Source: an uncultured Verrucomicrobiae bacterium
GTDB lineage: Bacteria; Verrucomicrobiota; Verrucomicrobiia; Limisphaerales; Palsa-1400
Direction of reading: 5' to 3'
Length of the DNA stretch: 64,000 nucleotides
NCBI GenBank assembly: GCA_963702845.1
Contig: OY969763.1
Coordinates: 960,001 to 1,024,000 of the forward strand
A program made the translations under genes and the position numbers. The notes under the pieces were generated by a model that was not told where the DNA came from, searched no databases, and was given only the letters and a program-made list of their open reading frames with translations. Below are positions 4,682 through 64,000 of the stretch, piece by piece (the first letter of the stretch is position 1; each line of letters opens with the position of its first letter).

Positions 4682-4709
4682 TTGACATGCCGTTGCTATA
4701 CTTTATAAT
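4682..4709 (+). promoter_or_regulatory. Consensus sigma70 promoter, no protein gene downstream
   Basis: TTGACA (4682-4687), 16 nt spacer, TATAAT (4704-4709). Confidence 0.7.
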
Positions 4710-4715
4710 GTCTTC

Positions 4716-4875
4716 GGCCGCCAGTCCTTACCGGTATTCGGGAGACAGAAAACCGGATGCGCTCTTTGACAAAAGTAGAAACATTTCCTTCTACAAATCT
4801 TCTCCGCTTGGCAACTAATTGCCGGAAGTAGAAGAAGCAAAACATTCCGATGATTTTTTTGAGCGCCCCGCATCA
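4716..4875 (+). ncRNA. Putative structured non-coding transcript containing an rrn-type boxA
   Basis: Follows the consensus promoter. CCGGT..ACCGG hairpin, GCTCTTTGACAA (4761-4772), further stems GTAGAA/TTCTAC and GGCAA/TTGCC, long-range GATGCGCTC/GAGC..GCATC. Ends uncertain. Confidence 0.4.
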
Positions 4876-8040: not shown

Positions 8041-8117
8041 GCGCGCGTAGCTCAATTGGATAGAGTAACGGCCTCCGAAGCCGCAGGTTGTGGGTTCAAC
8101 TCCCGCCGCGCGCACCA
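8041..8117 (+). tRNA. tRNA-Arg(CCG)
   Basis: Cloverleaf: GCGCGCG acceptor stem, D arm AGCTCAATTGGATAGAG, anticodon loop CTCCGAA, GGTTCAAC T-loop, encoded CCA. Confidence 0.97.
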
Positions 8118-38769: not shown

Positions 38770-38848
38770 CCCGTTTGTAATCTACTCAGGAAGCGCCGAT
38801 TGCCAAATGCGTTCGCTTGACGGCGTCGGGGCAGGGGACTACGGTTGC

Positions 38849-38949
38849 GACGTGCGGGGAGCCTTGCCTTTTGGCGCTGGCTGAGAGTCTTCTACAAGAA
38901 GAGACCCGTTGAACCTGATCCAGGTAATGCTGGCGAAGGGATGCACGTC
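38849..38949 (+). ncRNA. TPP riboswitch, probably translational
   Basis: P1 GACGTGC/GCACGTC, GGGGAGC..GCTGAGA, CCCGTTGAACCTGATCCAGGTAATGCTGGCGAAGGGA. Downstream CCCTTTCGCC can pair either with the aptamer or with the AAAGG Shine-Dalgarno of thiC. Confidence 0.96.
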
Positions 38950-38980
38950 CTCGTTCACCCTTTCGCCGCCAAAGGAAACT

Positions 38981-50112: not shown

Positions 50113-50245
50113 AAATTTTCGTTAAAGGTGTATCTAGGTGTATTTAACCTTCCGTGGAGGTGTTTTTGGGACGGTGTTGTAAGTGGTTGAGGTGCATGGG
50201 CGGGTGAATTGAATGTCGATCGGTAAAGAAACGGTAAAGTTTTTT
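50113..50245. repeat. 10-11-bp periodic repeats next to A/T tracts
   Basis: AAATTTTC GTTAAAGGTG TATCTAGGTG TATTTAACC; CGGTAAAG twice at 11-nt spacing before TTTTTT. Confidence 0.5.
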
Positions 50246-50271
50246 GAGTCGAGGTGATGTTGGCGCATGAT

Positions 50272-50296
50272 GGCTCGGCGGGAGCCTCGCCCTACC
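50272..50296 (-). repeat. GTAG-type REP element
   Basis: Minus strand GGTAGGGCGAGGCTCCCGCCGAGCC: GTAG tetranucleotide plus hairpin. Confidence 0.75.
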
Positions 50297-50340
50297 AAGA
50301 AGGTCTTTATTTTCATATTGGTGACTAACGTAGCAAGGTC

Positions 50341-50363
50341 ACTTGGACAAAGGCTGTCCAAGT
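50341..50363. promoter_or_regulatory. Perfect inverted repeat (candidate operator) in the divergent glcE/MFS spacer
   Basis: ACTTGGACA-AAGGC-TGTCCAAGT. Confidence 0.55.
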
Positions 50364-61703: not shown

Positions 61704-62705
61704 TTATCCGAGCCACTTGGGATTATGCGCAGTGCCGTCGTAGTTGGAGGTGGTTTTAAATTTTTCAAACTTGCCGGTTGCGGCGGCTTCGGCGGTGCGG
61801 GCCAGGAGTTGTTTAACGGCGCTGGCGGAAAGCGGTTTGAAGGTGCGGGCAGCCTGAAGAGCTTGTTGCAGGTTTTCCATGCTTTCCATTCCAGTGATGA
61901 CGACGGACGTGGGAAGGTTCATCGCATAGTGCAACGCTTCAATCGCTGAAACGGTGTTGGTTTTGAGCAAATTGCCAGCGGCCAATGGCTTCATTCCGAG
62001 AATGCCCATGTTCTTTTTCACCGCGACTGGCACGACCTTGTGCTCGAAACTGCGAAAGTGTGCGTCGAGAACGTTTAGTGGCATTTGCACGGTGTCGAAG
62101 GTGAACCCGTGTTGCTCGGCGATTTCAATACAGCGCAGATGAATTTGCGGATCTTTGTGGCCGGTGAAACCTATGTGACGGATTTTGCCGGCCTGTTTGG
62201 CTTCAGCTAATGCTTCCATCGCGCCGCCGGGTGCAAAAATCACATCCGGATCCTCGAAGCGAATGATCTCGTGCATTTGCAACAAATCGAGGTGGTCGGT
62301 TTGCAAACGCTGCAGGGATTCGTCGATCTGTTTGGCGGCAGCTTGTTTGTTGCGGCCGTCGATCTTCGTCATCAAGAACGCCTTTTCACGATAGCCATCG
62401 CGGAGTGCTTTGCCCATGCGCACTTCGCTGTCGCCGTCGTGATAGTCCCAACAGTTGTCCATGAAGTTGATGCCCGAATCGAGCGCGGTGCGAATGATCT
62501 TGATGCCTTCTTCTTCGCTTGGATTGCCGATGTGAAAACCGCCGAGGCCAATGCAGGAAACTTTCTCACCAGTGCGGCCAAGTGTCCGGTAGGGGACATC
62601 GCCCCGTTTTTCGGCGGCGAGTGCCGACGCGCTCGTGCTCACAGCGAGACCGGTTGCGACGGTCAGTTTGACAAAGTCACGGCGAGTGTATGCATTGGTG
62701 TCCAT
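61704..62705 (-). CDS. Tat-exported aldo/keto reductase
   Basis: TRRDFVK, YRTLGRTGEKVS, GINFMDNCWDY, SLQRLQTDHLDL, GFTGH, GMKPL. Confidence 0.92.
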   Translation of the reverse strand: MDTNAYTRRDFVKLTVATGLAVSTSASALAAEKRGDVPYRTLGRTGEKVSCIGLGGFHIGNPSEEEGIKIIRTALDSGINFMDNCWDYHDGDSEVRMGKALRDGYREKAFLMTKIDGRNKQAAAKQIDESLQRLQTDHLDLLQMHEIIRFEDPDVIFAPGGAMEALAEAKQAGKIRHIGFTGHKDPQIHLRCIEIAEQHGFTFDTVQMPLNVLDAHFRSFEHKVVPVAVKKNMGILGMKPLAAGNLLKTNTVSAIEALHYAMNLPTSVVITGMESMENLQQALQAARTFKPLSASAVKQLLARTAEAAATGKFEKFKTTSNYDGTAHNPKWLG

Positions 62706-62810
62706 AAACTAAAACATGGCTCCGGCGAGCCCGGCGTTCAACCGGAATTTCGAGGGGCTCGGCTATCAATGTCGAACAACATCCTATTAGCGGTAACATC
62801 TTTTTGTTTT

Positions 62811-62850
62811 GGTGAGAAAAAGTTGGAAAAGGTGAGAAAAGATTGGAAAA
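62811..62850. repeat. Decamer array A
   Basis: GGTGAGAAAA AGTTGGAAAA GGTGAGAAAA GATTGGAAAA. Confidence 0.85.
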
Positions 62851-62907
62851 CCTGCAATGCAACTGAACTGACTGACCCTGACCATCGCACCGCTCAAAAT
62901 AATTTTA

Positions 62908-62954
62908 GGTTCGGAATGGTTCGGTTTACCTCGGTTTGGTTCGGTTTGGTTCGG
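62908..62954. repeat. Decamer array B
   Basis: GGTTCGGAAT GGTTCGGTTT ACCTCGGTTT GGTTCGGTTT GGTTCGG. Confidence 0.9.
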
Positions 62955-63135
62955 GATCAATCGAATATTGTCCCCCCTTACCCCCCTCTGGACCCGTCAC
63001 GCCGTCCCAAGGCACGTAAACATTGATGGTGGCGGTTCCCCCACGAGCCTGACCAATTCAACCTCGGACGGTTCCGCAGGGGGAGTCATTAATAACAAGG
63101 ACCCTTTGATGCCAAAAATAAAATTTTAATTTTTT

Positions 63136-63185
63136 GGCGTTATGAGCCGTTATGAAGCGTTACAAGCCGTGATGACGCGTCATGC
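63136..63185. repeat. Decamer array C
   Basis: GGCGTTATGA GCCGTTATGA AGCGTTACAA GCCGTGATGA CGCGTCATGC. Confidence 0.85.
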
Positions 63186-63223
63186 CAAAACGGGGCGAGC
63201 GCCACTTTGGCGCAGTTTTGTGA

Positions 63224-63308
63224 TTTCAAAGAACATTCGCCTTCGCAGGCGTCCGGCATGCACCGCCGGCTGCTGCAAGGTTTAACATGAAGTTGCGACA
63301 TATGTCAA
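63224..63308 (-). promoter_or_regulatory. Sigma70-like promoter followed by a GNRA hairpin and rrn-type boxA
   Basis: Minus strand TTGACA-18-TAAACC with extended TG, CGCCT-GCGA-AGGCG (63238-63251), TGTTCTTTGAAA (63224-63235). Confidence 0.6.
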
Positions 63309-63690
63309 GCGTTGCAAGTTAAACCGATTTCGCGCGAAGGCTTCGAACCGCCGACTGGTAATCGGGGCTCGCTCCGCTCGGGGAGCAAAGAACGCGACGA
63401 TGGTCACTACGGACCTTAACAAGGGAGTGGCGGCTAACTTTATCGGCGGCGAATCTGGGAGCGTTCTGTTTTCTTGTTCGAGGACGGCAAAGCCTTTCTC
63501 TGATGCCGCCGTAAGATGATGTCTTCTGCTGACAACCGTTTTCGTCTGATGGTTTGAAACGCCTCGGTGGTGAACTCTGGGCCTCAGTGTTTTCCCCAAC
63601 AGACAAACCATGTTTATCGCTGCCGCACCATCCGTGCGAGCTAAGCGGTTCTTGGGAAACAAAACACAAACAATAGAAACTAAAACACCT

Positions 63691-64000
63691 ATGAAGCTAA
63701 AACACATAGCAATCTGTCTGATTGCGGCGGCCATGTCCGCATTGACAGCAAGAGCGCACATTCTGGTCACCGTTCTTTGTCCCGAAAGCGGCAAATCGGC
63801 GGCGGGCATTCACGTGTGCGCAACAAAGGCCAACAATCCTGAAAACCAACTTTGTGGCGAAACCGATGAAAACGGCTTTGTAAACTTCGTCCCGAATGCT
63901 GGGGGCATTTACCACGTCTGCGTCGATACTACCACCCTGCCGGCCGGGGCGATCCTCGCTAACCCTTGCCAGGACATTGATTTCGAAGGCGTCGACATCG
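63691..64000 (+). CDS. Secreted Cys-containing hypothetical protein, 3'-partial
   Basis: Not in the ORF track because it has no stop. Reads MKLKHIAICLIAAAMSALTARA-HILVTVLCP...GETDENG...YHVCVD; A/C-rich leader upstream. Confidence 0.75.
   Translation, partial: MKLKHIAICLIAAAMSALTARAHILVTVLCPESGKSAAGIHVCATKANNPENQLCGETDENGFVNFVPNAGGIYHVCVDTTTLPAGAILANPCQDIDFEGVDI

Follow-up and report, generated by a model that had tools for sequence, protein, structure and literature searches.

The non-coding element on the minus strand of the window (the whole stretch of 64,000 nucleotides that was analysed) appears, from its sequence, to be a gene-less, non-autonomous member of a dispersed family of terminase cassettes, whose modules have been shuffled among at least 145 loci of the genome (G000; 6.03 Mb in a single contig, ~90% complete). 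Its three array modules are very probably the start regions of small (TerS) and large (TerL) terminase genes from which the gene has been deleted. We consider it probable that TerS binds the arrays, and we read the element as a modular pac-like cassette that may be used to start the packaging of chromosomal DNA, a role to which we would give close to, though not quite, an even chance.

The element consists of a promoter, of a type that also stands ahead of TerS genes, followed by three modules of terminase-start type (Table 1). Three arrays were detected in it at a lag of 10 and none at lags 5-9 or 11-15; of 2000 dinucleotide shuffles of the element, one had a single lag-10 array and none had two or more. 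The initial annotation had described a promoter, hairpins, boxA, stems, three arrays and their tracts, and each of these was found at its position on the minus strand. For the promoter, the -35 box is present, but the -10 box is weak (TTAAAC/TAAACC) and a sigma-70 consensus scan of window positions 62600-63700 returned no promoter, so that the promoter and the transcription of this copy are deduced from paralogues with TATAAT. As the annotation had it, the element is non-coding: in the ORF list, which carries no homology test, the only overlapping ORFs are short or antisense. No terminator was found between the element and the 5' region of the next gene. The flanks are host genes, and the element does not lie within a phage or satellite genome. 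One soil-metagenome contig is identical across 62686-62836 and a second spans 62960-63110 with two substitutions and two gaps; either may come from the source sample. Since these contigs carry parts of the element almost unchanged, the assembly artefact that had been considered is unlikely.

Table 1. Features of the element, its downstream gene and its sister elements in the window
Feature	Position	Strand	Remark
Type-1 family promoter, -35 TTGACA at 63308-63303, weak -10	63279..63308	-	pattern match
Promoter spacer motif GTCGCAACTTCA	63299-63288	-	conserved in type-1 promoters
Leader hairpin 1	63270-63251	-	sequence
Leader hairpin 2, GNRA loop, boxB-like	63251-63238	-	ends 2 nt before boxA
boxA-like NusB/NusE site TGTTCTTTGAAA	63235-63224	-	sequence; putative function
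Lead-in resembling last TerS codons	63199..63223	-	overlaps small stem 63213-63199
Array C, 5 x 10 bp	63184-63136	-	A/T tract continues to 63113
TCCCCC...GGGGGA stem	63084-63037	-	sequence
G6 module, two G6 runs, 9-nt period	ends at 62972	-	with stem spans 62972..63084
Array B, 5 x 10 bp	62954-62907	-	with tract 62895..62954
Array A, 4 x 10 bp	62847-62811	-	with tract 62792..62847
Aldo/keto reductase, downstream host gene, outside the element	61704..62705	-	Pfam PF00248
Sister element: type-1 promoter, boxA-like word, degenerate array	4682..4860	+	below array threshold
Sister element: type-2 palindromic head, short dead ORF, degenerate arrays	50120..50362	-	below array threshold

That the modules derive from terminase genes is shown by local alignments scored against shuffles. 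For array C with its tract, the matching stretches are two TerS/TerL junctions in G000, one at 2302591-2302725 (z 22.5) and the other at 2131040 (z 18.5); a regular expression found ten copies of this array. Array B with its tract aligns to the DNA before the ATG of TerS at 4753165 (z 18). Array A with its tract matches the stretch that leads up to the start of TerL at 2760257 (z 12), as well as a stub at 2130815 (z 22). Given this homology to DNA before terminase start codons, the A/T tracts are translation-start regions. This link to a gene, and the company that arrays keep with small-terminase genes across the class, had escaped the initial annotation. The ATG is altered or lost in all three window modules and reads TTG in that of array C. 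The lead-in has a 15-nt exact match to the 3' end of TerS at 273580, which is suggestive only. Intermediates occur at 273580 and 2131089, where TerS is followed by an array, a TerL stub and a second array module. Among the window arrays, array B is closest to the class-wide unit AATC[CA][GA]ACC.

Arrays of this type are widespread in G000. An autocorrelation scan gave 160 arrays at lag 10, as against 18, 43, 21 and 42 at lags 8, 9, 11 and 12; the 127 arrays at lag 7 are a separate heptamer class. At a slightly lower threshold there are at least 217 lag-10 arrays at the at least 145 loci, and both numbers are lower bounds because the two sister elements of the window escape the threshold. These sisters, at 4.7 and 50.1 kb, had already been taken as signs of a dispersed family, and both exist; heads near-identical to that of the first occur at G000 433595, 5524223 and 1640869. 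The arrays fall into at least 29 sequence families and 31 singletons among those listed; one of these families is a palindrome-type CACGGAC repeat that we take to be the one found in GxxExxY neighbourhoods, and that presumably belongs to another class. All modules of the window element also occur singly and in other orders, and its promoter-hairpin-boxA head has three paralogues with 89-92% identity, two of which precede other arrays. When the 66 of 217 arrays that meet the rule of an in-register A-run end were superimposed, their unlike units had one common phase, W-rich at -10..-7 and S-rich at -3,-2, which fits the earlier suggestion of DNA sites phased beside bendable tracts. Only 11 of the 66 have an ATG after the tract.

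The ORFs that adjoin arrays in G000 are small terminases of the Mu gp27 type (PF11985, phrog_426) and large terminases (PHROGs). As is proper to small terminases, the former match the family (three of four tested matched phrog_426, E 8e-10 to 2e-7), the TerS model (pLDDT 84.6) has an HTH and long helices, and TerL adjoins TerS in seven loci. Superposition of the model on G20c TerS (4xvn) gave Z 5.6 and rmsd 8.1 over 95 aligned residues, values that unrelated helical proteins equal; the best match in BFVD was DUF3486 (E 0.17), and Foldseek with the shallow model returned nothing from the PDB at E < 0.001. A single protein query of viral contigs confirmed no TerS relatives. There are 14 mostly solitary TerS loci in G000, eight of which have an array within 400 bp, compared with 118 of 2486 control genes (4.7%). 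At two solitary loci with an unrelated type of TerS-TerL pair (phrog_6299), arrays lie immediately downstream of TerL. Capsid and portal genes are present in separate islands, and in five head-only islands no array lies within ~8 kb of TerL. According to the inspected translations, the neighbours of the element and of the solitary TerS genes are host genes, with no integrase, replication module or island ends of a PICI or satellite.

At G000 2301953-2308390 (L028), TerS, TerL and portal lie ahead of an ORF of 842 aa, which has no PHROG match and reaches the host genes; no capsid was seen in this locus. At 5240000-5252000 (L036), a type-1 promoter precedes a cluster of head genes (capsid, adaptor, portal, a broken TerL and a TerS fragment) among which a gene for the H protein of glycine cleavage is interspersed.

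The association of arrays with TerS extends to related genomes. A profile of ten G000 TerS proteins finds matches in 29 of 30 family genomes (1-14 copies each), in 4 of 30 from other families and in 19 of another 150 from the class, as well as in 3453 clusters of a metagenomic library. A lag-10 array was found within 400 bp at 18/29 and 10/26 of the relatives' TerS loci returned (28/55 together); lags other than 10 scored 0-6. Solitary TerS genes with enough flank had arrays at 17/23 and 7/20, and prophage-like loci in which TerL follows TerS at only 1/5. A polarity matrix built from 60 G000 arrays away from terminase genes placed 27 of 30 arrays at relatives' TerS loci in the sense of the gene. 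Similarity of the TerS HTH tracks that of the units (Mantel rho 0.41, p 0.001, n 25, with kin not independent) for 25 of 33 loci, seven having been dropped for want of an anchor motif and one for want of an array; shared descent explains this correlation as well as co-evolution does.

How such sites might work is suggested by known packaging systems. In SPP1, the direct repeats of pac cover promoters, the ribosome-binding site and the TerS start; their AT runs and GC pairs lend themselves to wrapping round a ring in which neighbouring HTH domains lie one turn from each other (PMC4737164, PMC6316719). The same reports provide the likeness to our arrays, namely direct repeats round the terminase start, AT runs with GC pairs and a TerS with N-terminal HTH; SPP1 and SF6, in contrast, have one site per phage genome, where G000 has at least 145 chromosomal loci and ~29 unit families, with strict 10-bp tandem arrays that are mostly gene-less and have no phage around. 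SaPI TerS redirects the helper TerL to chromosomal pseudo-pac sites, and a TerS outside the helper phage could likewise direct packaging from sites across the chromosome (PMC6687093). Unlike in SaPIs and PICIs, there is no integrase, primase or island here and TerS is solitary and multiplied; the sites bear promoters and are homologous to the cis region of the gene itself, and so are no chance look-alikes. Phage P1 pac also has short repeats clustered at the small-terminase gene, but these are seven hexamers inside the pacA coding sequence, Dam-controlled and in single copy (PMC10028697).

The phased arrays, the parallels with SPP1 pac and SaPI redirection and the capsid genes together lead us to read the element as a gene-less pac-like cassette. 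We argue that a ring of solitary Mu-gp27-type TerS, with HTHs one DNA turn apart, could wrap the phased W/S repeats beside the A tract and recruit a large terminase, its own or a helper's. Chromosomal DNA would then be cut and packaged from the arrays into the heads of resident head-only islands or of infecting phages. Delivered DNA with an end inside a module might recombine with resident modules, which would result in stacking and swapping, and the boxB/boxA leader could be an inherited antitermination leader that lets RNA polymerase traverse the untranslated stack. As most TerL-linked TerS genes of the relatives and all five head-only islands of G000 have no array close by, the arrays are not the ordinary pac sites that a parent phage would have had.

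In favour of this reading, besides the homology to terminase starts, the association of arrays with TerS genes, their sense polarity and their common phase, are the arrays downstream of type-1 promoters and their presence at a second, unrelated TerS-TerL type. Counted against it are the six of 14 TerS loci of G000 without an array at threshold, the mere 11 of 66 A-ended arrays with an ATG after the tract, the lack of a terminase neighbour for most array families, a period of 10.0 and not 10.5, and the restriction of the A-end rule to 66 of the 217 arrays. No baseplate-J or tape-measure gene (Baseplate_J, PhageMin_Tail) was found in G000 (90% complete), the tails of TerS genes also gather unrelated heptamer and REP-like repeats, and no fixed ends, target duplication or mobilising enzyme were identified for the element family. 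SF6 TerS, moreover, is described as binding its own repeats with little or no sequence specificity (PMC4737164), and the wrapping model is contested (PMC10370121).

A wider form of this reading, conceivable although we doubt it, is a distributed packaging system in Verrucomicrobia of this family without a phage genome of its own, in which solitary, diversified TerS and more than 100 amplified, gene-less pac cassettes at fixed chromosomal slots, co-regulated through shared promoters (one set apparently WYL-regulated), would route chromosomal DNA into borrowed capsids. If so, it would represent either a minimal satellite made of TerS and a cis site or a gene-transfer agent of decentralised kind, and a code that pairs each TerS helix with a 10-bp unit would be built into it. 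If the arrays are TerS sites, a bacterial lineage would have turned a phage packaging signal into a chromosome-wide modular repeat family, and with it gained a new way to carry out programmed lateral transduction or to jam phage packaging. Dozens of natural pairs of TerS and repeat, all phased strictly at 10 bp, would then also allow a direct test of the long-debated wrapping model (PMC4737164, PMC10370121).

Strong DNA-level matches to the element were found in only two congeners among 60 relatives, with weak ones in five others. The layout of gene-less head and array C is kept in two species with 78-80% identity. In G001, the orthologue of the downstream reductase has a like 5' region with no element upstream. 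Among 18 distinct heads of G001 and G002 with mappable flank, eight have an element at the orthologous G000 site, against a background of 300/4031 genes (7.4%); one case matched through a repeat only (L148) was left out. All seven orthologous sites inspected have partly or wholly different heads and arrays. Slots persist while their content is replaced between sister species. In random samples of 64-200 kb from six genomes, arrays numbered about two in 200 kb of G016, one in 200 kb of G012 and one in 94 kb of G043, with none of element type in G034, G059 and G009; arrays being this rare, the large gene-less expansion seems particular to one genus.

The arrays could also serve to organise the chromosome, with a domesticated TerS binding them as a nucleoid protein. 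In agreement with this, the 145 loci occur all along the chromosome (9-16 in every 500 kb), the W/S phase is nucleosome-like and most copies of TerS stand without TerL. A chromosome-organising site had been proposed in the initial annotation, but regular spacing and replichore polarity were not seen in G000: the spacing is near random (CV 0.9) and there is no leading-strand bias (26:40). Ten of the 18 sites are not conserved between species and the family's other genera have far fewer arrays per length of sequence, and we regard this explanation as very improbable.

It is fairly unlikely, in our view, that the family is a neutral or selfish mosaic repeat, a REP/BIME-like class born at terminase gene ends that has lost any packaging role and that gene conversion and slippage now spread and shuffle between intergenic hot spots, with an inert copy in the window. 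Such a history would account for the dead start codons of all three modules, loci crowded with other small repeats, the fast turnover at orthologous sites with no element upstream of the G001 orthologue, an expansion apparently limited to one genus, and copy numbers that vary as by slippage, up to the 12 units at G000 2302591. It is harder to reconcile with a unit grammar, phase and polarity common to ~29 sequence families and across the class, with the head and array C conserved in two species, and with the 23 near-invariant type-2 operators described below. BIME, neisserial NIME and streptococcal BOX are likewise intergenic, modular, shuffled non-coding elements in hundreds of copies; here, unlike in those families, the modules are direct 10-bp arrays from terminase gene ends with their own promoter. 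Membership of REP/BIME was rejected since the units are not palindromic inverted pairs: no long inverted matches between arrays were found, and the best arms reach 17 nt at 76-82%.

Two kinds of promoter head are associated with the cassettes. The type-1 pattern occurs 42 times in G000 (control 6) and 19 times in G002 (control 4), and at chance level in other genera. Relaxed matching gave 53 sites, of which 24 are accompanied by a boxA-like word and four by a TerS gene, while arrays lie downstream of 23 and upstream of one; in G001 and G002, arrays lie downstream of 14/22 type-1 promoters and upstream of one. The contrast is moderate, as 19/121 other TTGAC promoters also have arrays downstream. 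The type-2 head is a near-invariant 21-bp palindrome with 23 copies in G000, 17 in G002 and eight in G022. It precedes five TerS genes, three HTH-WYL-WCX genes and the 50.3-kb sister (window 50342-50362, minus), and this set is possibly a WYL regulon that includes terminases.

These heads are relevant to a decoy or regulatory sink, in which the stacks would titrate the cell's own TerS/TerL as a check on nuclease, or a phage's so as to spoil its packaging, and transcription from the boxA leader would tune occupancy. Many different arrays stacked at one locus would suit a multi-specific sink, the TerS profile matches nearly all family genomes, often in several copies, and the type-1 promoter spacer equals the unit of one array family. 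The type-2 operator is common to genes of a regulator family, HTH-WYL-WCX, that has been linked to phage defence (PMC9122601). Yet the elements sit among housekeeping genes outside defence islands, and autoregulation of the SPP1 type needs only a site at the gene; a decoy is, we think, unlikely.

The leader raises the question of whether the element works as RNA. Across seven copies, 92% of the cells of the leader hairpins are paired, with wobble changes only and no compensatory changes; the loop of hairpin 2 is GNRA in six (four different) and GAGAA in one. This pattern lends weak support to a transcribed boxB/boxA leader. The GNRA-boxA head that had been annotated is present, and NusB is encoded: G000 has two NusB-domain matches (3888377 and 5110923), one of which may be the N-terminus of RsmB. 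The structured scaffold RNA that had also been proposed found no support, as the predicted fold of the whole element does not surpass that of shuffled sequences (z 0.54) and compensatory pairs are absent. The Rfam search called for earlier was run at the gathering threshold and gave no match in the element, and a known ncRNA family was thereby rejected. The only matches in the window are an ordinary TPP riboswitch (38845-38960) and tRNA-Arg(CCG) (8041-8117).

An antitermination-protected non-coding transcript whose arrays sponge or scaffold proteins, perhaps TerS at its own translation start, would gain from strong promoters, from boxA in 24/53 heads with arrays almost always downstream, from GNRA loops kept while their letters vary, and from arrays that abut ribosome-binding regions. 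It is improbable, however, in view of the fold score, the missing compensatory pairs and Rfam family, a 10-bp W/S phasing that is a signature of duplex DNA, and a window copy with a weak -10 and no terminator.

In rrn leaders, a boxB-boxA antitermination site has this same order, and the head resembles them in having a hairpin and then boxA soon after a sigma-70-type promoter. Unlike in rrn leaders, no rRNA or tRNA follows the element, and the rrn operon of G000 has other boxA words and another context. A decayed rrn leader, the relic considered in the initial annotation, was excluded since the sole rrn operon lies elsewhere (16S G000 3834257-3835827) and has no blastn match to the element. 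MraZ boxes were rejected as G000 has only one MraZ, and tandem repeats made by reverse transcriptase as no RVT_1 match was found in this genome (90% complete). The element resembles a pac site, in that homologous modules abut TerS/TerL starts (the window copy itself being gene-less) and the repeats are phased in AT and GC, and it belongs to none of phages, PICIs, rrn leaders, Rfam families or REP/BIME. No published description of these arrays was found in a search of main texts with poor coverage of subscription journals.

The module of TCCCCC/GGGGGA stem and G6 runs is the right half of a GGGACG/GTGACG doublet-spacer-doublet repeat, with 17 nhmmer matches in G000 and further ones in G001 and G002; such modules resemble the iteron pairs at phage replication origins. 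A remnant of a primase/helicase origin was rejected, as no such gene lies beside any of the 17 G000 matches, where no link to a terminase gene was found either; viral contigs gave 0 matches. G6-type modules are intergenic at window 62972-63029 and at G000 4505048, 4462413, 5102789 and others.

Just past the window end, 1.5 kb from the element and separated from it by a 300-aa ORF, a second array stack (G000 1024806-1025159) has a module of array-A type. A repeated unit of ~1 kb with four to five arrays in fixed order has at least five copies in G000 (812388-813597, 1163644-1164550, 1556474-1557649, 2353627-2354415 and 3332707-3333300). In another genome, G225, at least six near-identical solitary TerS-like genes with long tails were seen (L043, L054, L057, L059, L061, L063), several of which have a boxA-like word 3' of the stop codon.
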